Shown here piece by piece: positions 15,704 through 54,043 of a stretch of DNA of 64,000 bases (position 1 is its first letter; every line of letters begins with the position of its first letter). The translations under genes and the position numbers were made by a program. The stretch comes from Candidatus Nanohaloarchaea archaeon (GTDB taxonomy: Archaea > Nanohalarchaeota > Nanosalinia > Nanosalinales > Nanosalinaceae). Under the pieces are notes generated by a model that saw nothing but the letters and a program-made list of their open reading frames with translations, did not search any database and was not told where the DNA came from. The DNA lies in contig JBDGRE010000001.1 of NCBI GenBank assembly GCA_042218325.1, positions 68,356-132,355 of the forward strand, read 5' to 3'.

Positions 15704-16471
15704 ATGGAGTTCGAAAAATACGTCCCTGGTAAGCATGGAAACCTCTTTCCCGACTCCTTCTCTGTGAATGTGGTGAAACCTTCCGACATCGAAGACTACC
15801 GTGGAGCGGTGAAGCAAGCTCTCGAAGATATCGAGGGTATTTTCGGAAGTATGGCGGCGGATTTCTCCGTAGTGATCGGGGAGATAGACGCCGGTCTACT
15901 GGAGGAAGAGTTCGACGGAGATATACTGCACTACGCCTATTTCCAGGCATACTCTCTCGGGAAGAAGGCACACAGTCAGGGCGACCGCAACATCATCTTC
16001 CTGGCCACTTCACAGGGGTACGAGTACTGGAGACCTGGCCTGAAATACTACACGGTGCACGAGGAGGCTCACCAGGAGTTCTACGTCGAGAAACCGGACA
16101 TGATGCACGAGATTTGGGAGTCGATTATCTTCGAGGGCCACGCGATCCACCGCTCTGAAAAGGTGCGGGAGCAGAAGGACTACCGCTGGGAGGGGCACCG
16201 GGGCAGCTTCCCCGGCTCCGCAGCAGAACTGAAACAGGAGCTGGACAAGAACAGGGAGTGGGAGGGCGACCTGCATGAGAGGGAGGACTCCAGCCCGCTG
16301 TTCAGCATGGGCGGAGAGCGCTGGCAGCAGGCGGAAGGATATATAGCTGCGTTCGAAATCTACCGCGATATCGTCGAACGCAACGGCATGGACGTAGACG
16401 GGCCCGTAAGGAGAAGCGAGGCGTGGCAAAAGGAGGAGAAAAGGAAGTCCATAGACCGGCTCTACAGCTAG
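15704..16471 (+). CDS. Putative Zn-dependent peptidase (HExxH)
   Basis: VHEEAH followed by IIFEGHA and a later GY motif; start at ATG 15704. Confidence 0.55.
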   Translation: MEFEKYVPGKHGNLFPDSFSVNVVKPSDIEDYRGAVKQALEDIEGIFGSMAADFSVVIGEIDAGLLEEEFDGDILHYAYFQAYSLGKKAHSQGDRNIIFLATSQGYEYWRPGLKYYTVHEEAHQEFYVEKPDMMHEIWESIIFEGHAIHRSEKVREQKDYRWEGHRGSFPGSAAELKQELDKNREWEGDLHEREDSSPLFSMGGERWQQAEGYIAAFEIYRDIVERNGMDVDGPVRRSEAWQKEEKRKSIDRLYS

Positions 16472-37748: not shown

Positions 37749-37826
37749 ACAGGAATGACGATTATTAGTTGAAGGCAGGGCGGAGATTTTTAACTCAACT
37801 GCTATAGAGCATGCTCGACTCTTGTC

Positions 37827-42623: not shown

Positions 42624-43037
42624 ATGACATCTGAACTCGCATTACTTGTCGGCCGCGTCCTTTTCGGTGGCTACTTCGCCCTGATGGGCGTCAACCACTT
42701 CCTGAGAACCGGACAGCTGGCCGGCTGGGCCGAATCCAAGGGTGCGCCCGCCGCGGAAGCGCTGGTGTACCTTTCAGGACTGATGCTTCTCGCGGGAGGC
42801 ATGGGCATCGCAGCCGCAGCCTACCCGGCGGTCAGTCTCGGCCTTGTAGGGGTCTTCCTCGCCGTCGTTACGCCGTGGTTCCACGACTTCTGGAGCCACG
42901 AGGGCGAGGAGAAACAGCAGCAGATGACCCACTTCCTTAAGAACCTCGCGCTCTTCGGCGCGGTTTTGGTCCTTTACGGGGCCGGGGCAGCGGTCTTCGG
43001 GCCGTACTCCGCCGGTGTGGGTCTCGGCCTGCTGTAG
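42624..43037 (+). CDS. DoxX family membrane protein
   Basis: GRVLFGGYF..GVNHF, HDFW, FLKNLALFG. Confidence 0.85.
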   Translation: MTSELALLVGRVLFGGYFALMGVNHFLRTGQLAGWAESKGAPAAEALVYLSGLMLLAGGMGIAAAAYPAVSLGLVGVFLAVVTPWFHDFWSHEGEEKQQQMTHFLKNLALFGAVLVLYGAGAAVFGPYSAGVGLGLL

Positions 43038-43141
43038 GAATCGCTCCTCCATCTTTTCTTCTTTTTTCTCGTACGCTTACGCGCGGCGTGCCGGTCTCCG
43101 GCGGATAAAGGGTCTAAGATGCCGTCTGCAAGCTTTTCTTT

Positions 43142-43621
43142 ATGAGAGGATTCCCCCACGGTGTTTTACTGTCGGGCATCGTACTCTCTTTCATAGCTGG
43201 CTCCGCGGGGCTCTTCGCGGCAGGTGCTTTCGACCCGGCGGAAAACGCGAACGAATCCGATCTGGTCGTGCACGGCGAGGTTGTTTACATCGGCCAGGCG
43301 GGGTACATCCCGTTGCGGGGTACCGAGATATCGCATCCCGTGACAGTCAGGGTGAACGAGACCTTCAAGGGTGAGGCCCGCGGCTCGGTCACTTTCCGGG
43401 TGGCTGGTGGCACGATACCCGGCGTCCGCGGAGTCCACGTCTCCACGGCACCGGATTTCGAGAGAGGCGAGGAGGTCGTGGTCATGCTCCAGCGTTCGGA
43501 GACCGGCTACATGGTCACGAGAGGAGAGCCCGGCAAGTACGAAGTGGTGAACGGTCGTAACTGTCCCGGGCCCGGAAGAAAGGAACCTGGCGGTCTACCG
43601 GCTGGAGTCGATAGTGCGTAA
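43142..43621 (+). CDS. Hypothetical exported protein
   Basis: N-terminal hydrophobic segment; SDLVVHGEV...GGT...PDFERGEEVVVML. Confidence 0.6.
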   Translation: MRGFPHGVLLSGIVLSFIAGSAGLFAAGAFDPAENANESDLVVHGEVVYIGQAGYIPLRGTEISHPVTVRVNETFKGEARGSVTFRVAGGTIPGVRGVHVSTAPDFERGEEVVVMLQRSETGYMVTRGEPGKYEVVNGRNCPGPGRKEPGGLPAGVDSA

Positions 43622-43734
43622 CACGAGTTCCGGTGACACCAATCGGCCGACACAGAAAGAAGGGGTGTCGGGTGGAAGGACCATCCTGGCGCCGCTTTCG
43701 GGGCTTTTCGACTGGTTGACAGGTCTCCTCTAGA

Positions 43735-45471
43735 TTACAGCTCTCCGAGTCCCGCGCCCTGCATGAACCCCTGTATCTTCTGCTCCAGCTCCTCAACGGG
43801 CACTCTTACCTGCTCCGTCGAGTCCCTGTCCCTCAGCGTGACGGTGCCATCCTCTAGGGTCTCGTGGTCCACGGTGACGCAGAGCGGGGTCCCGATCTCG
43901 TCCTGTCTCCGGTACCTCCGGCCTATCGCGCCCGAGTCATCGTAGTCGACCGAGAAGCCTGCGGCCCTCAGCGACTCCGCTACTTCTTCCGCTTTCTCCC
44001 CCATACCGTCCTTATCCATAAGCGGGAAAACCGCGACCTCTACCGGTGCGACATCCGGTTCGAGCCTGAGAACTGTTCGTTGCTCGCCGTCGACCTCGTC
44101 TTCTTCGAGGCTGTGGTCGAGGACAGTGTAGAACAGCCGCCCGATACCGAACGACGGCTCGACCACTGCGGCCATGATGTTCTCGCCGTTGATGGTTTTC
44201 TCCACCTCCTCTCTTTCTATCCAGTCTGTGTCGACATCGAAGACCTCGCCGTTCAAGTCTACCTCCAGCGTGTCCTGGTCCAGCAGGCTGGGATGGTCCT
44301 TGACGCTTTCTTCCACGGCCTCCGCGACATCGCCTGCGTCGGAGCCGAACTCCGGCCCGAGTTCGCCCATGTCGACCGAGACATCGACTACCTCTTCTTC
44401 CCGCGGCTCGTCGTACTCGCGGAAGACGGTGAAGTCCTCGCCCGAGTGCTCTTGGTGGTTCTTGAGGTCGTAGCAGCCGCGGTACGCGAAACCGGCGAGT
44501 TCCACCCATGTTCCCGCGGTGTAGGCCTCGGCGTCCCAGCAGTCGCTGGCGTAGTGCGAGAGCTCGTCCTCCTGGTGCTGCCGGAACCTGAACTTGTCCA
44601 TGTTGACGCCGACCTTCTCGTACCACCGCTTCGAGATGCCGACGTAGTAGGCGACCCAGTCGCTCGCGATTATATCCTTCTCGACGGCCTCGCCGACGGT
44701 CGTGACTATCTCTTCGCCGCCTCCTCTGTCCTGCTCGCTGCGCGGGTAGAGCGTGACCTTTACGTCCTCGACTTTCTCGAGTCCGGGTTCGTCTCTCTCC
44801 GGGTCGATGAAATGCTCGAGCTCGGCCTGTGTGAACTCCCGGACCCTGACCAGTGATTTACGCGGCGATATCTCGTTCCTGTACGCCTTGCCTACCTGGG
44901 TTATGCCGAACGGCAGCTGGTTGCGGGCGTACTCCTTCAGCTGCGGGAACTCCACGAAGATGCCCTGCGCCGTCTCCGGCCGGAGGTAGCCGGGCGAGGA
45001 GTCACCGGGGCCGATGTTGGTCGAGAACATCAGGTTGAAGTCGTCGACTTCTTCTCCCGCCAGTGCTTCACCGCAGTCCGGGCACTGTATGTCCTCGTCG
45101 GAGATGATTTCCATTATCCTCTCCGTGGAGAATGCCTCCGCCTCCTCCACTTCTGTATTATCCTCTACGAGGTGATCGGCGCGGTGCGACTTCCCGCATC
45201 CCGGGCATTCGATTATCATGTCGTCGAACGTCTCGAGGTGGCCGGATGCCTCGAAAACCGCCTCGGGCATCACTGTAGGCGCATCGATTTCCCGGTGGCC
45301 TTCCCTGTACGTGAACCTCTCGCGCCACTCGTCCTCGATATTACTCTTCATCGGGGCTCCGCGCGGGCCGTACGTGTAGAACCCGGCGGTACCGCCATAT
45401 ATCTCGTTCGAGGGCAAAAAGAATCCGCGCCTCTTCGCGAGTTCCGTGACTTCTCCCGTGTCGTCTGTCAT
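43735..45471 (-). CDS. glyS: Glycyl-tRNA synthetase (alpha2 type)
   Basis: LRPETAQG, RNEISPR, REFTQAE, EPSFGIGR, IGRRYRRQDEIG. Confidence 0.96.
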   Translation of the reverse strand: MTDDTGEVTELAKRRGFFLPSNEIYGGTAGFYTYGPRGAPMKSNIEDEWRERFTYREGHREIDAPTVMPEAVFEASGHLETFDDMIIECPGCGKSHRADHLVEDNTEVEEAEAFSTERIMEIISDEDIQCPDCGEALAGEEVDDFNLMFSTNIGPGDSSPGYLRPETAQGIFVEFPQLKEYARNQLPFGITQVGKAYRNEISPRKSLVRVREFTQAELEHFIDPERDEPGLEKVEDVKVTLYPRSEQDRGGGEEIVTTVGEAVEKDIIASDWVAYYVGISKRWYEKVGVNMDKFRFRQHQEDELSHYASDCWDAEAYTAGTWVELAGFAYRGCYDLKNHQEHSGEDFTVFREYDEPREEEVVDVSVDMGELGPEFGSDAGDVAEAVEESVKDHPSLLDQDTLEVDLNGEVFDVDTDWIEREEVEKTINGENIMAAVVEPSFGIGRLFYTVLDHSLEEDEVDGEQRTVLRLEPDVAPVEVAVFPLMDKDGMGEKAEEVAESLRAAGFSVDYDDSGAIGRRYRRQDEIGTPLCVTVDHETLEDGTVTLRDRDSTEQVRVPVEELEQKIQGFMQGAGLGEL

Positions 45472-45585
45472 GGGAGACAGTTCGGAGAGTATCTTTTAGA
45501 AAGAACGGTTTTGAGGCTCGAGAAAGTTTCAGTAACGGCTGTGGGAGGCTCCAAAATGTCCACCTTTGGTTGGTTCACAGCACAT
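45468..45585 (-). promoter_or_regulatory. glyS leader: uORF 45529-45585 with putative +1 shift site TTT-GGA; +1 frame ends on glyS ATGA
   Basis: MCCEPTKGGHFG...; AAA GGT GGA CAT TTT GGA at 45567-45550; +1 frame open 27 codons to TGA 45470-45468. Confidence 0.75.
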
Positions 45586-45640
45586 GCCTGTAACCGGGCC
45601 TCGAAGTTTTTTATGAGTTCGTGGGCTCGGCGGGATAATC

Positions 45641-46201
45641 ATGGCGGAAGACGTAGTCCTCGTGGGCGGCGACGGTGTCGACGAGAACTTCCCCGCGGTC
45701 CTGGAACCGCGTCGGGCTCTCGAGGAAGAAGGCTACAGCGTGGATGTGATCGAGCTCTACAGGGGTTTCGAGCAGGCAGTGGAGGAAGACGGCTCGGTAC
45801 CGGAGATCGAGAGCCGTATAGAGGCCGGGACCCACCTCGTGGGTTACTGTGCAGGAGGCGTTCTCGCGTACCAGTACATAGATCACCCGGACGTGCTCTC
45901 CTTCACAGGCTACGATGTTCCGTCGGGTCTAAGGGTCGAAGACAGGGAGCTCCGGGTCGACGAGCCCGTTGACAGGGAGGACATCTTCTTGATATACGCC
46001 GGCGAGATAGGGGGGCGGCTCGAGGGCAGTTTCGCCGGGGCCGAGGTGAAAGATACCGGTCACGGATTCGACGGCAGGGAGCAGGAACTGGCGAGGGCCG
46101 TGCTGCACGGTCTTGAACACCATTCCGGTATAGGTCTTGAAGATCTGTCGGAAAGGGCGCTTGAACAGGGAGTATCTATCTTCCGGGGGCTCCGGAGATA
46201 A
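45641..46201 (+). CDS. Alpha/beta-hydrolase-like protein
   Basis: LVGYCAGG nucleophile elbow and GHGF, dienelactone-hydrolase-like. Confidence 0.55.
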   Translation: MAEDVVLVGGDGVDENFPAVLEPRRALEEEGYSVDVIELYRGFEQAVEEDGSVPEIESRIEAGTHLVGYCAGGVLAYQYIDHPDVLSFTGYDVPSGLRVEDRELRVDEPVDREDIFLIYAGEIGGRLEGSFAGAEVKDTGHGFDGREQELARAVLHGLEHHSGIGLEDLSERALEQGVSIFRGLRR

Positions 46202-46291
46202 AACCGGCTGCGCGCCTGTTGAGACCTATGGCCGCGGTCTGGAAACCTTAAAAACCTGCCAGGATAATACTTCGTAATATGAGGGATTTCT

Positions 46292-47461
46292 ATGAGAGGG
46301 CTTGAAGAAGCAGAGCTGGAGGGAAAGAAAGTCATCCTTAGAACCGATCTCAACCTGCCGGTGGAGGACGGAGAGCCGCAGAAGACCGTCAGGTTCGAGC
46401 GCTACATGGAGACTGTCAGAAAGTTAAGCTATAAAGGGGCGAGAACGATGATAATAGCACACCAGGGCCGCCCCGCCAGGAAAGACTTCCTATCCCTGGA
46501 AAGACACGCCGAACATGTCTCCGGCGCGCTAGAGAAGGACGTCAACTTCGTCCAGAGCTTCTTCGGGCCCGAGCTCGGGGACGCGGTGGCTTCGATGGAA
46601 GACGGTGACGTCTGCCTCCTGGAGAACGTCCGTTTCCTCTCGGAAGAGCTGCAGAACGTCTCGCCCGAGAGACACGCTGAAGACTACTTCGTGAGCAACA
46701 TGGCCTGTTACTTTGATGTTTTCGTTGACGACGCTTTCTCCGCCGCCCACCGCTCGCACGCATCCATTGTCGGCTTCGCGCCGCTGCTCGATTCCTACGC
46801 GGGCCCGGTGATGCAGCGCGAGCTGGAGAACGGCAGGAGGGTGAGGGATGAGCTCGAAGATCCGCTTCTCGTGCTCGGCGGGGAAAAACCGGCCGACCTG
46901 ATAGGTATGATGGAACAGATGATAGACCGTGCGGACAAGGTGCTTCTCGCCGGCATCCCTGGAGAACTGGCATTGACACTGCGAGGTGAAGAGCTAGGAG
47001 AGAAGAACGACTGGATAGAGGAACAGGGCTTCGATTCAAGGGCTGGCGAACTAAAGGAGCTGCTGGACGAACACTCTGACAAGATCGTACTGCCGCAGGA
47101 CCTGAGGACAGGGTCCGGCAGCCACAGGGTCGGCGATGTACCTACGGATGAGATGACCTGGGACATAGGACAGGAAACACAGGAAAGATTCGTAGAGGAG
47201 ATAGAGGAGGCGGACTCGGTGCTGATGAAGGGTCCGATGGGTGCGTTCGACGAGGGCCACGAGGAAGGGACTCGTGCTATCGTCGACGCCATAGCCTCGA
47301 GCGATGGCTTCACGGTGCTCGGCGGAGGCCACACCTCATCGCTGGTTCACAGGTTCGACCACGCGCTGGAAGATTTCTCCCACGTCTCTATCGCCGGAGG
47401 AGCCTTCGTAAGGTACATGTCGGGCGAGGACCTCCCTGCGGTGGAGGCACTCAAGGACTGA
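46292..47461 (+). CDS. pgk: Phosphoglycerate kinase
   Basis: RTDLNLP, AHQGRP, LLENVRF, AFSAAHRSHAS, GPMG.F, GGGH, IAGGA. Confidence 0.93.
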   Translation: MRGLEEAELEGKKVILRTDLNLPVEDGEPQKTVRFERYMETVRKLSYKGARTMIIAHQGRPARKDFLSLERHAEHVSGALEKDVNFVQSFFGPELGDAVASMEDGDVCLLENVRFLSEELQNVSPERHAEDYFVSNMACYFDVFVDDAFSAAHRSHASIVGFAPLLDSYAGPVMQRELENGRRVRDELEDPLLVLGGEKPADLIGMMEQMIDRADKVLLAGIPGELALTLRGEELGEKNDWIEEQGFDSRAGELKELLDEHSDKIVLPQDLRTGSGSHRVGDVPTDEMTWDIGQETQERFVEEIEEADSVLMKGPMGAFDEGHEEGTRAIVDAIASSDGFTVLGGGHTSSLVHRFDHALEDFSHVSIAGGAFVRYMSGEDLPAVEALKD

Positions 47462-47497
47462 CATGGATATTTCAATCCGGCGGGAGAGTTATCTTGT

Positions 47498-48271
47498 ATG
47501 AAGGTAGAGAAGATAGGAGAAGGAGAACCAGAGTACACGGTCGTAGGGAGCCTCCACGGCGACGAGCCGTGCGGGAAAAAGGCTATCGAAAAGTTCCTGT
47601 CCGGGGACTGGGAACTCAAGAAACCCGTACAGTTCATCATAGCGAACGAGGAAGCTCACGAACAGGAAGTACGGTACCTCGATACGGATCTCAACAGGTC
47701 TTTCCCAGGCGACCCGGTAAGCGACAGCCACGAGGAGAGGCTGGCCGCGAGACTGCTGGAGCTGGTCAAGGGCACGAAGCTCATCGATTTCCACTCGACC
47801 CGGTCACAGGATGAGCCTTTCGCCACCACCTCCATCATGACGGAAGAGGTCCTGGAGCTCGCCCGGTCTTCTGGCGTCCGGGACGTGGCCTACTTCGGCG
47901 CGGAGTCCGGTGTGCTCAACGAAAGGGTGCCGGCGGTAACGGTAGAGGCCGGCAGGCAGGGAACAGAGCAAGCGGCGGAGAACGCCTACGGGATACTCGT
48001 CAATTTCCTGGCCGCGGAAGGTGTCATCGACGCGGATTACGAGCGCTCGGATATAGAGCTCTACATCTACTACGATACCGTCGAGGGCGGCGACCTTGAG
48101 TTCGTCGCAGAGAACTTCACCCTCGTCGAGGAGGGCGAGGTGTACGCCCGGAAGGATGGGGAAGAAATCAGGGCCGACGAGTACTTCTTCCCGATCCTGA
48201 TGTCGACCCATGGGTACGAGGACATCCTCGGCTACAAGGCCCAGAAGATAGATAAAGATGTCTACCTCTAG
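47498..48271 (+). CDS. Succinylglutamate desuccinylase/aspartoacylase family (M14)
   Basis: HGDEPCG, DLNRSFPG, IDFHST, VEAG. Confidence 0.85.
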   Translation: MKVEKIGEGEPEYTVVGSLHGDEPCGKKAIEKFLSGDWELKKPVQFIIANEEAHEQEVRYLDTDLNRSFPGDPVSDSHEERLAARLLELVKGTKLIDFHSTRSQDEPFATTSIMTEEVLELARSSGVRDVAYFGAESGVLNERVPAVTVEAGRQGTEQAAENAYGILVNFLAAEGVIDADYERSDIELYIYYDTVEGGDLEFVAENFTLVEEGEVYARKDGEEIRADEYFFPILMSTHGYEDILGYKAQKIDKDVYL

Positions 48272-48278
48272 GTAATTC

Positions 48279-48459
48279 ATGCGGCAGGGTGGACGTTTTT
48301 GGACCGCGCGCATCTCCCGATGACGTAGACAGCCGCTTTACGGTCCAGGGTGGATGTTCGGGCTCTTCTCGCACGCACGGCAGTTTATCTTTGACTGGTT
48401 CATACCTGCAGATCTGCGCTGTGCTGGAGGCTTCTTGGCGCAGAACATGGTATAGGTAA
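48279..48459 (+). promoter_or_regulatory. Extra Trp-type frameshift cassette (uORF 48279-48323; +1 frame to 48459)
   Basis: ATG CGG CAG GGT GGA CGT TTT TGG (MRQGGRFW). Confidence 0.5.
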
Positions 48460-48576
48460 TACAGGTACTTTCCGCCGATAAATATCGTAAAGAGCTGCTG
48501 GTATGCATTTTCAGGGCTTTTAGAGGCTTGAAAGCTACTTAAATCTTTTCTTACAACAGAAAAATACGTGAGTAAC

Positions 48577-48961
48577 ATGGCACACACCACTACGGACGAA
48601 GAAAATGCAGAAGCCCGCAAGGGTGGACGTTTTTGGAAAACCTAGCATAGAAGTGGTCGCAGACCTGGCGGACCCGACCCCAGTTTACGTTTCCGGCCAG
48701 CAGGACACCGGTTTCTACCGCGAGATAACCTGTGATGCCGACCTCGTGATCCTGAGGAACAAAGAGGAATTCTCGCAGGAACCCGGAGATATCCTCGACG
48801 GGGATTACAGGGAGCTGCTACAGAGGTCAGACCAGGATATCTACGTTCACGAGGACGCGCCCAGAGACTTCCCTGGGATGAACCCGTACGTGGTCGAAGG
48901 GCTGGCCGCCAGCGGCGTGGAAGAACTGGCGGAAGCCTACTTGGAGCAGGGCCATGAATAA
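48577..48961 (+). CDS. Hypothetical protein probably made by +1 frameshift at TTT-TGG (48631-48636); leader of trpS
   Basis: 0 frame MAHTTTDEENAEARKGGRFWKT* (48577-48645); +1 frame is the acidic ORF 48605-48961. Confidence 0.65.
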
Positions 48962-48986
48962 AATACCTGCCCGTGGAAGTGATTGA
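48954..48986 (+). CDS. 10-aa relay ORF into trpS
   Basis: ATGAATAA overlap with upstream stop; MNKIPARGSD; TGA-C-ATG into trpS. Confidence 0.45.
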   Translation: MNKIPARGSD

Positions 48987-48987
48987 C

Positions 48988-50097
48988 ATGCCAGACATAG
49001 ACCCGTGGGGAGACGTCGAGGTGGGAGACTACCGCGAAAAGATGGAGAAGTTCGGCATCGAACCAGTCGGCGAGATAGAGGACAGGATGCCGGACCACAG
49101 GTACGTCCGCCGCGGGATAATATTCGGTCACCGCGGCATGGACGAGTTCCTCGACGCCCGGGAAAACGGCGATAACGTGGCGATGATGACGGGTATCATG
49201 CCGTCCGGCGTCTTCCACATGGGCCACAAGTGCGTGGTCGACCAGGTCACGATGTACCAGGAGATGGGGGCCGACATCACCCTCGCGGCCGCGGATATAG
49301 AGGCTTACAACACCAGGGAGATGCCCATAGGGAAGGCCCGCGAACTTGTCATCGAGGAGTATCTGGCCAACTACGTGGCGCTCGGCCTCGACCTCGAGCA
49401 GACTGATTTCTACTTCCAGAGCCAGGCCGGCAACGACCACCACGCCCGGGCCAAGATGTTCGCTCGATACCTCACACAGAACGAGGTCGAATCCACGTAC
49501 GGCAGCGCCGCACCGGGGAAGATTACCTCCGCGCTGACGCAGTACGCCGACATACTGAGGCCCCAGTTCCCGGAGAACGGGGGCCCGAAGCCCACAGTCG
49601 TTCCTGTAGGCGTGGACCAGGATCCTCATATACGGCTGACAAGGGAGGTCGCACGCAAGTACCGCGGCCAAGGCTTTGTCAAGCCCGCCTCAACTTACAA
49701 CAAGTTCATGCGCGGGCTCCAGGGCGGCAAGATGTCGTCGAGCAAGCCCAAGAGCTACATCGCACTGACCGACGGTGTAGAAGATGCGAAGCAGAAGGTC
49801 GACGAGGCCAAGACCGGCGGCAGGGACACACTGGAGGAGCAGCGGGAGAAAGGTGCCCGGGTCAAGGAGGACATGGTCTTCGAGCTGCTTGCCTTCCACC
49901 TGATCGAGGACGACTCCGAGCTTGAACGCATCCGGGAAGAGTACAGCTCGGGAGAGATGCTCTCCGGCGAGCTGAAGCAGATAGCGAAGGAAAGACTGGA
50001 GGAGTTCCTGAGGGAGCACCAGCAGAAGCGTGAAGAGGCCCGTGCCGAGGTGGAGCAGTTCGTCCGCGAGAACGTTCCCGAGGGAGAACTGGTTTAA
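48988..50097 (+). CDS. trpS: Tryptophanyl-tRNA synthetase
   Basis: IDPWG, PSGVFHMGH (HIGH), PVGVDQDPH, KMSSS, AKTGGR. Confidence 0.95.
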   Translation: MPDIDPWGDVEVGDYREKMEKFGIEPVGEIEDRMPDHRYVRRGIIFGHRGMDEFLDARENGDNVAMMTGIMPSGVFHMGHKCVVDQVTMYQEMGADITLAAADIEAYNTREMPIGKARELVIEEYLANYVALGLDLEQTDFYFQSQAGNDHHARAKMFARYLTQNEVESTYGSAAPGKITSALTQYADILRPQFPENGGPKPTVVPVGVDQDPHIRLTREVARKYRGQGFVKPASTYNKFMRGLQGGKMSSSKPKSYIALTDGVEDAKQKVDEAKTGGRDTLEEQREKGARVKEDMVFELLAFHLIEDDSELERIREEYSSGEMLSGELKQIAKERLEEFLREHQQKREEARAEVEQFVRENVPEGELV

Positions 50098-50121
50098 GTC
50101 CGCACCGACTGTTTTTGAGGT

Positions 50122-50817
50122 ATGCTGCCCGAGCTTATACTGCGCGAGGAGGAGCACGAGAACCTCCCTCTGCTGGCACTGCTCGGTATCTTATCCGGGC
50201 TGCTCGGTTTCGCGGCCGCGAAGATGCTGTTCCCGTCGCAGGCCGACCTTCTCGGCGTGATATTCGCGTCGATACCGCTGATATTCCCACTCACGAGCTA
50301 TTTCCTTGAGCGTGAAAACGAGACAGCGCCGCACCTGCCCGAGGTCGAGGTCTACGGCTCGGTGTTCTTCGGCGAGGTCGTCGCGTTCTTCCTGCTCGGC
50401 ATGTACTTCCAGGACGCGTTCTCGCTCCAGAACCAGATAATAGGTGCGACCGGCAACGCGGTCAACGCTGTCTCGTTTATGTCTATACTTTCCAACAACC
50501 TGATGGTTTTCCTCGGTATCCTGGTCGTCGCCTCGGTGATTGGCTCCGCGGGTGCGTTCGTCCTGACCTGGAACGCATCGGTGCTCGGAGTCTTCTTCGC
50601 CGACCTTTTCAGGGAGTCCGCCATCAAACCGCTGGCTTACGTCCCCCACGCCACGTTCGAGATGGGAGGCTTCATAATCGCCGGCATCTCCGGTTCCATG
50701 ATATCCGCCGCGCTGTACCGCGAGCATTTCGAGAGGGATACCTGGATCGATATAGCGCAACTCGTCGCCGCGGGCCTTCTGCTTATACTGTTCGGGGCGT
50801 TCCTGGAGACGGCTTAA
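50122..50817 (+). CDS. Stage II sporulation protein M (SpoIIM)-like membrane protein
   Basis: ILSNNL, WNASVLG, PHATFE, GAFLE. Confidence 0.75.
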   Translation: MLPELILREEEHENLPLLALLGILSGLLGFAAAKMLFPSQADLLGVIFASIPLIFPLTSYFLERENETAPHLPEVEVYGSVFFGEVVAFFLLGMYFQDAFSLQNQIIGATGNAVNAVSFMSILSNNLMVFLGILVVASVIGSAGAFVLTWNASVLGVFFADLFRESAIKPLAYVPHATFEMGGFIIAGISGSMISAALYREHFERDTWIDIAQLVAAGLLLILFGAFLETA

Positions 50818-50847
50818 CGACTTAAAGCTCCGCATCCATCAAGCCTT

Positions 50848-50974
50848 ATGACCGCAGGAACACGTTTACCAACTGGTCCCACCGACTACAAGGGTGGATG
50901 TTTTTTCCGGGGATAGACCCTGCCACGGCTGCGCTGAAATATTAAAGGTTAATCGGCGAGGTGTATCGCTGTGA
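50848..50974 (+). promoter_or_regulatory. pheS leader: uORF 50848-50916 with putative +1 shift site TTT-TTC; +1 frame ends on pheS GTGA
   Basis: MTAGTRLPTGPTDYKGGCFFRG*; AAG GGT GGA TGT TTT TTC at 50890-50907; +1 frame open 22 codons to TGA 50972-50974. Confidence 0.78.
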
Positions 50975-52377
50975 GACTCTCGAGCCAGGCAGCACAGATA
51001 CTCGAAGAGCTACGCGGCCGTGGAGAGGCCACGGTCGAGGCGCTGGAGAAAGAGGGCTACGACCAGTCGATGGTTCACAGGGCGGCGCTGGAGCTTCAGG
51101 AGAAAGGCCTCGTGGAGTACGAGGAAGAGGAGGAGATAGTGCACCAGATGACGGATAAAGGCCGTGAGGTCATCGAGAACGGCTCACCGGAGCACCGCCT
51201 CGTCCAGAGACTGGAGGACTCCGGGAAACAGATGTCGGAGCTCCAGGACCTGGACCTCGACGTCGCTCTTGGAAAGGCCCGGGAGAAGGGATGGGTCGAA
51301 ATCGAGAACGGCGAGGTCGAGCTCACCGGCGACGGCGAGGCGAACCTCGACACGGATCCTGCCCAGAGGAGGCTGGAGAGCCGCGAGTTCGACGAAGACC
51401 TGCGGGAACGCGGGCTGGTAGAGGCCGTGAACCAGACGGAACGCGTGGTAAGACTCACGCAGGAGGGCCGGTCGCTGGCGGAATCCGAGATAGAGGAAGA
51501 GTTCAACCTTGAGGCCCGTGTGAAGACGCCGAGGACAGGAAAGAAGCACTTCTACAAACAGATAATCGACTACGCCCGGAGGAAGTGGGTAGAGATGGGG
51601 TTCGAGGAGATGAGCGGCGACTTCGTAGTCCCGAGCTTTCTCAACTTCGACGCGCTCTACACGCCGCAGGATCACCCGGCCCGGGAGATGCAGGACACCT
51701 TCTTCATGGAAACGCCTGCTGTATCAGACATAACCGGCTACGATGTGAAGGTGGAGAACGTGAAGAACACCCACGAGAACGGGTGGATCACGGGCAGCGA
51801 CGGCTGGGGCTACGAGTGGTCGCGTGAAGAGGCGGAGAGAAACGTGCTGAGAACACATACTACCGCGGTTTCTATCCGCAGGATACACGAGATAGAGGTG
51901 AACGAGGAGGAGCTGCCGAGAAAATTCTTCACGGTCTCAAGAAACTTCAGGAACGAGACGGTCGACAGGTTCCACCTAGCAGAGTTCTACCAGACCGACG
52001 GCATAGTGGTCGGCGAAGACCTCAGCTTCCGCGACCTGAAGGGATACATAAGCGAGTTCTTCGAGAAGATGGGCTACGACGACTTCCGCCTGGTACCGTC
52101 CTACTTCCCTTACACCGAGATGAGTGTGGAGGTCCACGTCTGGGACGAGAAAGACGGAGAGTGGGTCGCTCTCGGAGGCGCAGGAATGTTCAGGCCTGAG
52201 GTCGTGAATTCGATGCTCGGCTTCGAGGCAACAGTGCTCGCCTGGGGTCTCGGCATCCCGAGGATAGCCATGGGTGCCGCGGAACTGGAAGATATACGTG
52301 AGCTGTACAGGAACGACGTAGAGATACTCGAGAACACGCCGGCCTGGAGGCCGCAGAACATGGAGGGTGAAGGATAG
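50971..52377 (+). CDS. pheS: Phenylalanyl-tRNA synthetase alpha subunit
   Basis: NFDALYTPQDHPAREMQDTF, LRTHTT, FRNE, YFPYTE, GMFRPE, AWGLG. Confidence 0.96.
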   Translation: MRLSSQAAQILEELRGRGEATVEALEKEGYDQSMVHRAALELQEKGLVEYEEEEEIVHQMTDKGREVIENGSPEHRLVQRLEDSGKQMSELQDLDLDVALGKAREKGWVEIENGEVELTGDGEANLDTDPAQRRLESREFDEDLRERGLVEAVNQTERVVRLTQEGRSLAESEIEEEFNLEARVKTPRTGKKHFYKQIIDYARRKWVEMGFEEMSGDFVVPSFLNFDALYTPQDHPAREMQDTFFMETPAVSDITGYDVKVENVKNTHENGWITGSDGWGYEWSREEAERNVLRTHTTAVSIRRIHEIEVNEEELPRKFFTVSRNFRNETVDRFHLAEFYQTDGIVVGEDLSFRDLKGYISEFFEKMGYDDFRLVPSYFPYTEMSVEVHVWDEKDGEWVALGGAGMFRPEVVNSMLGFEATVLAWGLGIPRIAMGAAELEDIRELYRNDVEILENTPAWRPQNMEGEG

Positions 52378-52378
52378 G

Positions 52379-54043
52379 ATGGCGCACATCGAGGTGGACA
52401 AGAGAGAGTTCGACGAGCTTGTAGGCGCCGAGATCGATGAACAGAGGCTTCACGAGGACGCATCGATGCTCGGCGTCCACTGGAACCACGTAGAAGGGCC
52501 GAAATGGGATGTCGAGGTGTACCCGAACAGGCCTGACCTCCTATCGGTAGAAGGCCTCGCCCGGGCGTACAGGGGATTCTTCGACATCGATACCGGAAGA
52601 GAGGTATACGACGTGGAGGATGGAGATATACAGGTCGAGGTCGACCCTTCTGTCAAGGAGGTGCGCCCGTTCATCGGTATCGCGGTAGTGAGAGGCCTCG
52701 AGCTCACGGAGAAGAAGATAAACGGCCTGATACAGCTGCAGGAAAAGCTTCACCAGACTCTGGGGAGGAGGAGAGACAAGCTCGCCATCGGCCTCCACGA
52801 CCTGGAAACCGTCGAGGCGCCTTTCACGTACCGGGCGGTGGAACCCGAGAAGGTATCTTTCACGCCGCTGGAGTACGAGCGCGACATGCAGCTCGGCGAG
52901 ATACTGGACGAGCACGAGAAGGGCCAGGAGTACGCATGGATACTGGAGGACGAGGACCGCTACCCTCTGATCGAGGATTCAGAAGGTCGTGTACTTTCCT
53001 TCCCGCCGATAATCAACAACCAGCTGACGGAGGTCGAAACGGGAACAAGGGATATACTCGTGGACGTGACCGGCAAAGAGCTCGAAACAGTGAAGAAGGC
53101 GCTGAACATAATAGCGACTGCGCTCGCGGAACGCGGTGGCGACATAGAGACGGTCGAGGTAGACGGCGACAGGATGCCGGAAATCGAGCCAGGGAAAAGG
53201 GAACTCGACTTGGATTACTTCCGCGGTATCTCGGGCCTGGGACTGGATGCGGGACAGGTCATCGAAAGGCTCGAGAGGATGAAGATGGGCGCGGCCAGGA
53301 AACAGGATACTATAGAAGTGGAAGTACCTGCTTACCGGACTGACGTGATGCACCAGTATGATTTGATAGAGGACGTGGTGATAGCGCACGGCTACGGGAA
53401 CGTGGGCCCGGAGCTTCCGGAGGTAGACCAGTTAGCCCGGGAACGACCGGTCGAGGACTACACCCGCTTGCTGAGAGATACCCTGCAGGGAACCGGCGCG
53501 CTTGAGGCCCACACATACATACTTTCGAACCGGGAGAAACTGTTCCACAGGATGGATATCCCGGAAGAAGATATCGCCGAGATGTCGAATGCCCTTACCG
53601 AGGATTATACTGCGGTAAGGAACTGGCTGCTCCCCTCGCTCATGGAGGTCCTGCAGAGGAACAGGCACCGCTCCTACCCGCAGAAGTTCTACGAAGTGGC
53701 GGACGTATCGGTGCTTGACGACAGCGATACCGGCGCCTCCAACCGGAGGAAGCTGGCCTACGTCCACTCCTCGAACGATGTGGATTACAACGATGTCCGC
53801 CAGGTACTGCAGGTGCTTGAACGCGACCTCGGCGTCGAGTTCGAGGTAAGATCGCCGGGTATCGACTGTTACGAGGACGGCCGGGCCGCGACCGTGTACC
53901 TCGACGGTGAAGAGGTGGGCGCTATCGGGGAGTTTTCTCGCGAAGTCCTTGGTAACTGGCAGCTGGAGATGCCGGCTGCCGGATTCGAGCTGGACGTCGA
54001 GAAGCTGTTGCGGCTTTCATCCAAGGCCGAACATGACGGGTAG
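52379..54043 (+). CDS. pheT: Phenylalanyl-tRNA synthetase beta subunit
   Basis: PNRPDLLSVEG, QEKLH, SFPPIIN, PAYRTDVMH..DLIED. Confidence 0.95.
   Translation: MAHIEVDKREFDELVGAEIDEQRLHEDASMLGVHWNHVEGPKWDVEVYPNRPDLLSVEGLARAYRGFFDIDTGREVYDVEDGDIQVEVDPSVKEVRPFIGIAVVRGLELTEKKINGLIQLQEKLHQTLGRRRDKLAIGLHDLETVEAPFTYRAVEPEKVSFTPLEYERDMQLGEILDEHEKGQEYAWILEDEDRYPLIEDSEGRVLSFPPIINNQLTEVETGTRDILVDVTGKELETVKKALNIIATALAERGGDIETVEVDGDRMPEIEPGKRELDLDYFRGISGLGLDAGQVIERLERMKMGAARKQDTIEVEVPAYRTDVMHQYDLIEDVVIAHGYGNVGPELPEVDQLARERPVEDYTRLLRDTLQGTGALEAHTYILSNREKLFHRMDIPEEDIAEMSNALTEDYTAVRNWLLPSLMEVLQRNRHRSYPQKFYEVADVSVLDDSDTGASNRRKLAYVHSSNDVDYNDVRQVLQVLERDLGVEFEVRSPGIDCYEDGRAATVYLDGEEVGAIGEFSREVLGNWQLEMPAAGFELDVEKLLRLSSKAEHDG

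Follow-up and report, generated by a model that had tools for sequence, protein, structure and literature searches.

The 64,000-nucleotide stretch of DNA analysed here (hereafter the window; G000:C1:68356-132355) comes from the genome of a Candidatus Nanohaloarchaea archaeon, a 1.07-Mb assembly of 35 contigs with 55% GC. It contains three aminoacyl-tRNA synthetase (aaRS) loci, glyS, trpS and pheST, and in each of them the synthetase gene is preceded by one or more short upstream open reading frames (uORFs). Each of these uORFs carries in its own reading frame (the 0 frame) a cassette of the form GGTGG-M-YRY-TTT followed by a single codon, X, which specifies the amino acid of the synthetase encoded downstream. 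An original prediction, made from this DNA alone, had read the cassettes as +1 frameshift signals, such that a shortage of charged tRNA for X would trigger the shift and switch on the synthetase gene. It had described three copies, for Gly, Trp and Phe. All three are real and lie at the claimed places, but a fourth copy, in a second Trp leader (48280-48324), had been overlooked. The features of the three loci are as follows.

45529-45585, minus strand: Gly leader uORF, 0 frame, encoding MCCEPTKGGHFGASHSRY and then a stop; a longer version would start at an in-frame ATG at 45642
45550-45567, minus strand: Gly cassette AAA GGT GGA CAT TTT GGA, a putative shift site with Shine-Dalgarno (SD)-like GGTGG, E-site CAT, P-site TTT and A-site sensor codon GGA
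45468-45551, minus strand: +1-frame path of the Gly leader, running to a TGA (45470-45468) that overlaps the glyS ATG at 45471 (ATGA)
43735-45471, minus strand: glyS, glycine--tRNA ligase (TIGR00389, 668 bits against a cut-off of 243)
48280-48324, plus strand: Trp leader 1 uORF, encoding MRQGGRFWTARISR and then a stop, with the cassette CAG GGT GGA CGT TTT TGG at 48285-48302
48301-48459, plus strand: +1-frame open reading frame (ORF) of Trp leader 1, ending with the conserved peptide YLQICAVLEASWRRTWYR from 48403
48578-48646, plus strand: Trp leader 2 uORF, encoding MAHTTTDEENAEARKGGRFWKT and then a stop, with the cassette AAG GGT GGA CGT TTT TGG at 48619-48636
48635-48961, plus strand: +1 "relay" ORF of Trp leader 2, 108 codons past the site, with a TAA at 48959-48961, 29 nucleotides (nt) before the trpS ATG (48988)
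48988-50097, plus strand: trpS, tryptophan--tRNA ligase (TIGR00233, 245 bits against a cut-off of 177)
50848-50916, plus strand: Phe leader uORF, encoding MTAGTRLPTGPTDYKGGCFFRG and then a stop, with the cassette AAG GGT GGA TGT TTT TTC at 50890-50907
50906-50974, plus strand: +1-frame path of the Phe leader, running to a TGA (50972-50974) that overlaps the pheS GTG at 50971 (GTGA)
50971-52377 and 52367-54043, plus strand: pheS and pheT, phenylalanine--tRNA ligase alpha and beta (NF003210 and TIGR00471, both above cut-off)

The gene identities that had been assigned, glyS, trpS and pheS, were borne out, the Gly-, Trp- and Phe(alpha)-tRNA ligases each scoring above their NCBIfam cut-offs. So was the proposed arrangement of the frames: the 0 frame stops 7 (Gly), 3 (Trp) and 3 (Phe) codons past X, and the +1 frame leads to the synthetase start, directly in the Gly (ATGA) and Phe (GTGA) leaders and by way of the relay ORF in the Trp leader. 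Whereas 100 shuffles gave an expected count of 0.00 for the signal GGTGGAYRTTTT, the window has four matches. Within the +1 ORF of Trp leader 1 there are Trp codons at 48436-48438 and 48448-48450.

The same signal occurs elsewhere in the source genome. In its strict form it is present in seven copies genome-wide, each within a short ATG-started uORF before an aaRS gene. The word GGTGGAYRTTT has five matches, four of them inside the window; the fifth is found 3.7 kb beyond its left edge, in a uORF encoding MKGGRFSVRHVRE and then a stop, before the gene for serine-tRNA ligase, with TCC as X. A codon-neutral search for GGN GGN NNN TTY returned 23 matches, of which seven are the leaders. Two of these were added by this search, one with X = ACC before the ThrRS gene and one with X = GTA before the ValRS gene, and both have a +1 frame that closes on the start codon as ATGA. 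The serS (TCC), thrS (ACC) and valS (GTA) leaders were thus located after the hypothesis had been stated, and all fit its expectation that further aaRS leaders should carry cognate codons. Of 19 aaRS genes located with Pfam models, six (Gly, Trp, Phe-alpha, Ser, Thr and Val) are directly preceded by a strict leader; by eye no leader was seen within 330 nt upstream of the other 13, and variant His and Lys leaders lie farther upstream. A looser pattern, GGTG[GA]N YRY NTT, yielded three more leaders in this genome. These are an Ile/Leu double leader (C14:16082), whose +1 ORF ends DILLDASIIL, a His leader (C31:18814) before an AbrB-like ORF, a hisG-like gene and the HisRS gene, and a Lys leader (C32:3865) before a long +1 ORF, a DapF-like gene and a class II LysRS-like gene, the names of the genes behind the His and Lys leaders being read from N-terminal sequence.

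A comparative pattern, ARGGTGGMYRYTTT, was searched against the source genome and 40 relatives, with the reversed pattern as a control. It was present in 35 of the 41 genomes, with 140 matches as compared to 11 for the control. Across the phylum it was found in 59 of 70 genomes, namely 47/49 in family f1, 8/8 in f4, 2/10 in f3, 1/1 in f2 and 0/1 in f5. The flanks of all matches in the 41 genomes were collected, one duplicate was removed to leave 140 sites, and the downstream genes were classed by tblastn with the 19 aaRS proteins of the source genome. An in-frame ATG is present at 132 of the 140 sites, giving uORFs with a median of 17.5 codons, 130 of them no longer than 40 codons, and the 0 frame stops 2-25 codons past X (median 7). 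Among the eight sites without an in-frame ATG, L001, L006, L029 and L053 look like chance matches, and L060, the middle site of L073, L099 and L117 may begin at codons other than ATG. X is a sense codon at all 132 uORF sites.

A same-strand aaRS gene was identified downstream at 96 sites, within 400 nt at 80 of them and farther away at 16. Non-cognate codons at such sites would have spoken against the original prediction, and there were none: X is cognate at 96/96 sites (Thr 20, Ser 17, Gly 15, Trp 15, Val 13, Tyr 7, His 4, Cys 3 and Phe 2). The relatives are not independent of one another, being kin, but nine amino-acid classes and many genera agree nonetheless. The amino acids to which cassettes are assigned number at least 13, of which W, T, S, G, V, Y, H, C, F, I, L and K can be named, one R-like chance match being excluded. 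A survey anchored on 30 GlyRS loci, the source genome included, found 16 with the strict cassette, two with a variant and 12 with none. A Ser cassette is present at four of six nanohaloarchaeal SerRS loci as compared to none of 74 other SerRS loci, where a single chance GGTGG...TTT match is followed by a stop. In 301 genomes of another archaeal phylum there were 168 matches in 121 genomes, with the reversed control of the same order (not summed) and hence no enrichment, and five further archaeal genomes gave one match against four for the control. Within what was searched, the element is confined to Nanohaloarchaeota; the host group is this phylum and not the haloarchaea, from which the original prediction had drawn its example of stop/start coupling.

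The start codon of the synthetase gene could be placed for 79 aaRS-proximal sites (L105 excluded). At 69 of these 79 sites the +1 stop falls within -10 to +12 nt of the start, and the overlap of +1 stop and gene start seen in the window is thereby conserved. An exact ATGA or GTGA overlap occurs at 28/79 sites and the arrangement ATGnnTGA at 13, and stops 4-7 nt before the start are also common. In the same interval there is a 0-frame stop at none of the 79 sites and a +2-frame stop at four, the 0-frame stop lying at a median of 69 nt before the aaRS start. Therefore, ribosomes that decode X would finish far from the gene, and ribosomes in the +1 frame would finish on its start codon. An upstream stop that overlaps or abuts a downstream start is the hallmark of a pair coupled by termination and reinitiation, and it is this arrangement that is found at the 69 sites.

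The original prediction had taken the constancy of the codons to indicate a signal at the level of nucleotides. Indeed, all seven leaders of the codon-neutral search use GGT and TTT, despite these making up 20% of Gly and 14% of Phe codons, respectively. The statement that GGT GGA is invariant stood in part: GGTG is fixed at strict and GGTGA-type sites, but the second codon is elsewhere GGC, GAA or GAC. At two GlyRS loci, for example, the leader reads ...GGT GAA TGT TTT GGR (peptide T/N-G-E-C-F-G). In these and in the Ile, Lys and His leaders of the source genome, which have GGTGAA or GGTGAC, the residue changes from G to E or D and GGUGA is kept. Variants of the form GG[ACG]GG numbered 21 in the relatives as compared to 47 for the control. 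The 3′ tail of the 16S rRNA reads GGATCACCTCC, and therefore GGUGA is a perfect SD core and GGGUGG can pair at six positions, two of them G-U. As at a prfB-type shift site, an SD-like element (GGGUGG, GGUGA or GGGGG) is thus found close to the putative shift codon, 4 nt before UUU.

The codon before TTT is CGT at 68 sites, TGT at 26, CGC at 25, TGC at seven, and TAY or CAY at seven. Its YRY form was imposed by the pattern used in relatives but was free to vary in the codon-neutral genome search, where it held in 7/7 cases, and in the GlyRS survey, where it held in 18/18; the E-site codon of prfB, UAU, is of the same type. The sensor codon is biased as well, being GGA in 15/15 Gly cassettes (22% usage), GTA in 15/17 Val cassettes (18% usage) and always TCC or TCT in Ser cassettes. 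Outside positions -6 to +22 of the cassette the leaders share no sequence (information content below 0.16 bit). If the anticodon of tRNA-Phe is GAA, as we take it to be, it pairs with UUU by wobble, and its re-pairing in the +1 frame would be perfect where X starts with U, at 64/132 sites; at four sites the UUU_C sequence improves the pairing, and variant sites with GUU_C would keep two of three pairs upon a +1 slip.

Evidence that bears on translation of the +1 frame came from the peptides it encodes. In 12 "first-copy" Trp leaders from different genomes, including that of the window (48403-48444), the +1 frame encodes the peptide (Y/F)(L/M)xIS(S/A)(V/I/L)xxx(S/A)W(R/Q/H). The codons of this peptide vary synonymously (ATA/ATT/ATC, TCT/TCC/TCA/TCG, GTA/GTG/GTC), which is a signature of selection at the peptide level. 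All ten Ile leaders have 4-8 Ile codons among the last 20 of the +1 ORF (for example ...SIISIIAIIG before the stop), and three of four Val leaders that lack a downstream valS have 3-8 Val codons in the last 20, the fourth (L007) having none. Several Ile or Val leaders also contain a second 0-frame site, GGT GGM CGY GTT CTR (Leu), that feeds the same +1 frame. The Ile- and Val-rich ends, together with a Leu site that leads into the same +1 frame, therefore suggest that both frames sense related amino acids.

In some leaders the cassettes are paired. At L032, L062 and L073 there is a second cassette whose 0 frame coincides with the +1 frame of a Trp site. Similarly, the His leader of the source genome has a second TGT TTT CAC in its +1 frame, and the +1 frame of this second site is the AbrB-like ORF, which ends ATGGCTGA on the hisG-like start. 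These pairs look like two-step cascades, in which the AbrB-like ORF would be reachable only after two +1 shifts in the source genome and after one shift in L088. The AbrB/SpoVT-like small ORF itself (...SKGRITIPARLRNRLELEEGE...), named by sequence resemblance, lies between the His leader and the hisG-like gene at G000:C31:18800-19330. In the window, the +1 ORF of Trp leader 1 holds a decayed cassette, CAG GGT GGA TGT TCG GGC, at 48346-48361 (GGT GGA TGT TCG at 48349-48360), in which TTC/TCG replaces TTT TGG. It may be the remnant of a cascade, because the relatives L032, L062 and L073 have an intact second Trp cassette there in the +1 frame.

A further small ORF, beginning MTT.. or MT(R/L/K)H.. 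and with many Thr, His and Asn codons (for example MTRHNHTTTTPYRKTQ...), comes after the +1 ORF in L031, L042, L051, L060, L066, L070, L082, L089 and L112, and also near position 15900 of G000:C14. These ORFs adjoin the +1 ORFs of Ile and Val leaders and precede the next gene; they could be a third leader stage or a relic of the IlvA N-terminus.

In 53 minimal leaders the uORF ATG stands directly before the cassette, with "CA" ahead of it and a TATA-like AT box at -36 to -28. These features predict a leaderless mRNA in which the GTG within GGTGG, some 7 nt from the 5′ end, would have neither an SD sequence nor the 5′ end itself. Transcripts that start downstream of the leaders would have counted against the original prediction, and the promoter-like AT box 28-36 nt upstream of the uORF ATG instead predicts a start at the leader.

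Control of aaRS genes, as originally proposed, is supported by these data, but it is not limited to them, as genes for TrpB-, TrpC- and TrpD-like proteins, IlvA and a His operon are also among the targets. No aaRS gene was found in the flank of 44 sites, of which 38 have a uORF (Trp 18, Ile 10, Val 4, Phe 2, and Lys, Ser, Leu and Thr 1 each). For example, Ile leaders precede threonine ammonia-lyase, the protein at L059 scoring 392 bits on TIGR01127 against a cut-off of 379, and those at L028 and L111 having the same N-terminus. The Trp leader L073 lies before a TrpB-like PALP protein, with an ATGA overlap, and the Trp leader L045 before an IGPS (TrpC-family) protein. Elsewhere the +1 frame runs into the enzyme ORF itself, as for a Glycos_transf_3 (TrpD-family) protein at L120, a class I/II aminotransferase at L062 and an M20 peptidase at L063. 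The logic of this regulon resembles, by analogy, that of T-box and attenuator regulons.

The motif, the cognate-codon rule, the +1 geometry, the frozen synonymous codons and the conservation of +1 peptides are established by computation. On this basis we propose that the leaders are probably amino-acid-specific translational switches, in which +1 frameshifting at a hungry codon is coupled to reinitiation. From the sequences we infer the slip itself, its dependence on tRNA charging, the part played by the SD-like element, and reinitiation. The target transcript would start, probably leaderless, at the uORF AUG, and would carry GGUGG, GGUGA or GGGGG 4 nt upstream of UUU (rarely GUU) and then the sensor codon for the amino acid of the gene. 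Five or more codons after the AUG, the ribosome would have UUU in its P site and X in its A site. With plentiful charged tRNA, X would be decoded and translation would terminate 2-25 codons on, at a median of 69 nt before the gene, which that ribosome would leave untranslated. With the A site empty at a hungry X, peptidyl-tRNA-Phe on the weakly paired UUU would slip by +1, helped by an SD:anti-SD duplex as in prfB. The shifted ribosome would then either end on the aaRS start (ATGA or GTGA) and reinitiate, or read straight into an enzyme ORF. The synthetase or pathway enzyme so made would restore the charged tRNA and close the loop. The original interpretation held in every computational test applied, and the sequence data support its extension to a regulon of synthetase and biosynthesis genes. 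Taken together, the frozen codons, the conserved or cognate-rich +1 peptides and the SD-like members that lack a GTG favour a prfB-like +1 frameshift at a hungry codon.

Several observations weigh against a frameshift switch of this kind. At 10 of the 79 sites a gap of 11-99 nt separates the +1 stop from the start that follows it. Of the aaRS starts, 30/79 bear a GGTG SD sequence of their own, and folding of 76 leaders showed no sign of masking of the aaRS start (accessibility 0.44 as compared to 0.41 for shuffles, median z +0.26). A hairpin that would mask the SD sequence over the start was accordingly considered and found no support in these folds. Because of these SD sequences and the lack of any sign of masking, independent initiation could bypass the switch, and basal initiation independent of any shift is likely. 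X starts with A or G at 64/132 sites, where re-pairing of tRNA-Phe in the +1 frame needs a mismatch at the third (wobble) position. The spacer is 4 nt as compared to 3 in prfB, GGUGG/GGUGA and GGGGG would pair with different registers of the anti-SD sequence, and the pairing register is ambiguous. The distance of 5 nt from GGTG to TTT also resembles that at genuine starts (6-7 nt at 20 of the 30 GGTG-bearing aaRS starts, with a crude genome-wide peak at 5). Internal SD elements are not known to act on archaeal ribosomes during elongation. Finally, some targets have no evident link to X, namely those of L079 (Lys, endonuclease V) and L101 (Phe, GCS2-like), and L039, L084, L007 and L081 precede genes without a family; these unexplained targets neither contradict nor support the codon rule. 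At L079, whose AAA leader encodes MQGGCFKRRRMYEKN and then a stop, the endonuclease V gene (Pfam, 191 bits) begins 5 nt past the +1 stop.

Alternatives that dispense with a frameshift were weighed against the same data. One that we regard as unlikely is an attenuation-like stalling of the leader peptide, in which a pause at X would alter the structure, stability or transcription of the mRNA and the +1 ORF would be an unrelated ORF for constitutive coupling. A cognate codon in a translated uORF is indeed what the bacterial trp, his, ilv and pheST leaders have, and the Ile-, Val- and Trp-rich ORF ends resemble classical attenuator peptides. However, the cognate-rich runs sit in the +1 frame and not in the frame of X; therefore both frames would appear to be read by ribosomes that sense one amino acid. 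Such stalling also does not account for the single sensor codon, the frozen GGTG and the frozen TTT, nor for a +1 frame that closes at the gene start at 69/79 sites and yet, in minimal or GGGGG leaders, shows no sign of an independent start. Furthermore, alternative structures of the attenuator type are not apparent, there being no conserved sequence outside -6 to +22 and no excess structure over the aaRS start, although archaeal terminator hairpins were not specifically modelled.

It is also quite unlikely, in our judgement, that the leaders are two overlapping uORFs initiated independently, with the GTG in GGTGG starting the +1 ORF and the 0-frame uORF modulating it by ribosome traffic or stalling at X. 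There is a GTG in the +1 frame at all strict and GGTGA-type sites, and a start there would give the long +1 ORFs (TrpD-like, aminotransferase and AbrB-like) a plausible N-terminus, for example MDVFG.... But the Trp leaders L241 and L244 read GGGGGG and have no GTG, ATG or TTG at that place; both keep the other leader features and L244 retains the conserved +1 peptide. Neither does ATG ever substitute for GTG, as GATG variants occur at the level of chance (20 matches as compared to 17 for the control, none of them leader-like). In the 53 minimal leaders the GTG lies 4 nt past the uORF ATG and a promoter-like box lies upstream, so that it would have no SD sequence and would not be at the 5′ end. 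A ribosome stalled with X in its A site would moreover cover the GTG (-11 to -9), so that expression would fall upon starvation, opposite in sign to what is needed. This reading also leaves the frozen TTT, the YRY codon and the fixed spacing unaccounted for.

We consider it very improbable that the leaders are T-box-like RNAs to which uncharged tRNA binds outside the ribosome, X serving as the specifier codon and UGG(N) as the partner of the tRNA 3′ end. X is a codon and not an anticodon, the regulon is T-box-like and GGUGGA does contain UGGN, as this would require. However, cmscan of positions 43000-54000 on both strands gave no Rfam match at E <= 1, the T-box family RF00230 included, and the leaders share no other sequence. 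X lies just 6 nt from UGG, which by the established geometry of tRNA is incompatible with touching both the anticodon and the acceptor end, and the in-frame ATG (132/140), the short 0-frame stop and the +1 phase relation are features of translation. That the cassette acts at the level of DNA, for instance as the operator or promoter box of a regulator shared by translation genes, or that it is a repeat arisen by chance, appears to have a negligible probability. A short DNA word is indeed conserved before genes of related function, but such an element would not make X track the downstream amino acid at 96/96 sites nor fix the frame relations, and chance predicts 0.00 copies in the window and 11 control matches as compared to 140.

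Two narrower readings were ruled out. An arrest peptide KGGxF is not consistent with GGT and TTT being fixed, with a second residue of G, E or D wherever GGTG is kept, or with x = R, C, H or Y, which is the nucleotide pattern YRY. An oligo-T terminator is not consistent with a T-run of merely 3-4 nt when X begins with A or G.

Of known systems, prfB comes closest to the proposed hungry-codon frameshift. At its shift site prfB has an SD-like element 3 nt before CTT_T (TTT_T in 21 genomes), and its slow A-site codon is read by the product of the gene itself (PMC12421855). To judge from the same account, the leaders share with it an SD-like element a few nt upstream of a pyrimidine-rich P-site codon, a slow A-site codon that depends on the product, and early termination if the ribosome does not shift (PMC12421855). 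They differ in that the sensor is a sense codon read by an aminoacyl-tRNA, with an indirect link to the gene product, whereas in prfB it is a stop codon read by a protein factor. The leader cassette is also modular and re-used across amino acids, has a spacer of 4 nt and not 3, and occurs in an archaeal host. Save for some Trp and His targets, it resides in a uORF and would act by stop/start coupling, not inside the regulated ORF.

Hungry codons are known to promote +1 shifts, an effect described for E. coli in the relevant passage of a 2016 recoding review (PMC5009743). The same passage states that "no examples are known" of hungry-codon frameshifting with starvation-specific products (PMC5009743). 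For coupling, ATGA overlaps lead to termination-reinitiation in Haloferax, as has been reported (PMC6728339). The 28/79 +1 ORFs that end ATGA or GTGA on the aaRS start are similar to the ATGA/TGATG coupling of Haloferax volcanii and E. coli (for the principle, PMC6728339). They differ in that the upstream ORF of the leaders would be reached in the shifted frame only, which would make the coupling conditional.

The leaders are like T-boxes in having one cognate codon each, a regulon of aaRS and biosynthesis genes, and tRNA charging as the presumed signal. Unlike the T-boxes of Firmicutes and others, they are archaeal and lack Stem I, specifier loop and antiterminator, and the codon would be read on the ribosome in a uORF. 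With bacterial attenuation (trp, his, ilv, thr and pheST) they share a short translated leader with hungry cognate codons, and their +1 ORFs end like ilv and trp leader peptides; the aaRS leaders differ in having a single 0-frame sensor codon, and their read-out would be a change of frame and coupling to the next start. The +1 frameshift of antizyme and the uORFs of GCN4 and ATF4 are likewise translational sensors of homeostatic genes, and GCN4 also reports uncharged tRNA. However, antizyme responds to polyamines and has a stop codon in the A site, and GCN4, which relies on eIF2 phosphorylation and reinitiation, neither distinguishes codons nor shifts frame.

The original prediction had known of no earlier description. 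In line with this, we found no account of the control of aaRS or amino-acid pathway genes by frameshifting leaders in the main texts of openly accessible papers, and nothing on frameshifting in Nanohaloarchaea or DPANN in the same texts. Those parts of a 2021 review of archaeal recoding that a term search brings up contain no synthetase, uORF, leader or release-factor case of such control. The leaders thus look like an apparently undescribed archaeal way of sensing amino-acid shortage by a shift in reading frame. To our knowledge, how archaea match the expression of aaRS and amino-acid pathway genes to supply is largely unknown, and T-boxes, attenuators and the thrS operator have no described archaeal counterpart.

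Seen as a whole, it seems fairly likely that Nanohaloarchaeota possess a genome-wide, codon-programmable regulon for sensing amino acids. It would be built from a portable 15-nt cassette (SD-like element, YRY, UUU and X) that is re-targeted by changing X, with aaRSs controlled by conditional stop/start coupling and biosynthetic enzymes made as trans-frame products. Cascades, OR-type pairs of Ile and then Leu sites that lead into one +1 frame, and cognate-rich or conserved +1 peptides as a second stage would add to it. If this is true, it would be the first natural regulatory use of hungry frameshifting at sense codons and the first amino-acid-specific control system known for archaeal aaRS genes. 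It would form a new class of cis-regulatory element, with the function of a ribosome-borne T-box and the mechanism of a generalised prfB switch, and would mean that internal SD elements act on elongating archaeal ribosomes. It would further provide a rule for annotating DPANN genomes, where dozens of small ORFs and trans-frame enzymes are mis-called or lack annotation, and a compact, re-programmable amino-acid sensor for synthetic biology.

A number of minor observations were made along the way. ARAGORN found 19 tRNA genes in the source genome (a 96%-complete assembly) and no tRNA-Phe, tRNA-Trp, tRNA-Thr or tRNA-Val; the missed genes either have introns or unusual forms or are unassembled. A class I LysRS (PF01921, 394 bits) is encoded at G000:C31:67963-69027, and a class II tRNA-synt_2 protein with a LysRS-like N-terminus, behind the Lys leader, at G000:C32:559-2010; the latter may be a second lysyl-tRNA synthetase or an AsnRS. 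A palindrome, GTAATAC-N4-GTATTAC, lies about 100-190 nt upstream of glyS in L210, L214, L218, L221 and L225, most of which have no Gly leader; it may serve as an operator for a protein or belong to a divergent promoter. The relay ORF of the window (118 residues) was considered as a conserved protein and rejected, as it matched no Pfam family and had no significant blastp match to seven relay ORFs of relatives; relay ORFs match one another between close genera only. A candidate cassette with a stop codon as X, CAG GGC GGA GAT TTT TAA at position 37776 of the window, was also rejected as a leader, having a TGA two codons upstream and no start. Two ORFs that adjoin the leaders, at 45641-46201 (186 residues) and 50122-50817 (231 residues), have no NCBIfam match, and the second of these, which lies between trpS and the Phe leader, has by eye the look of a multi-pass membrane protein.

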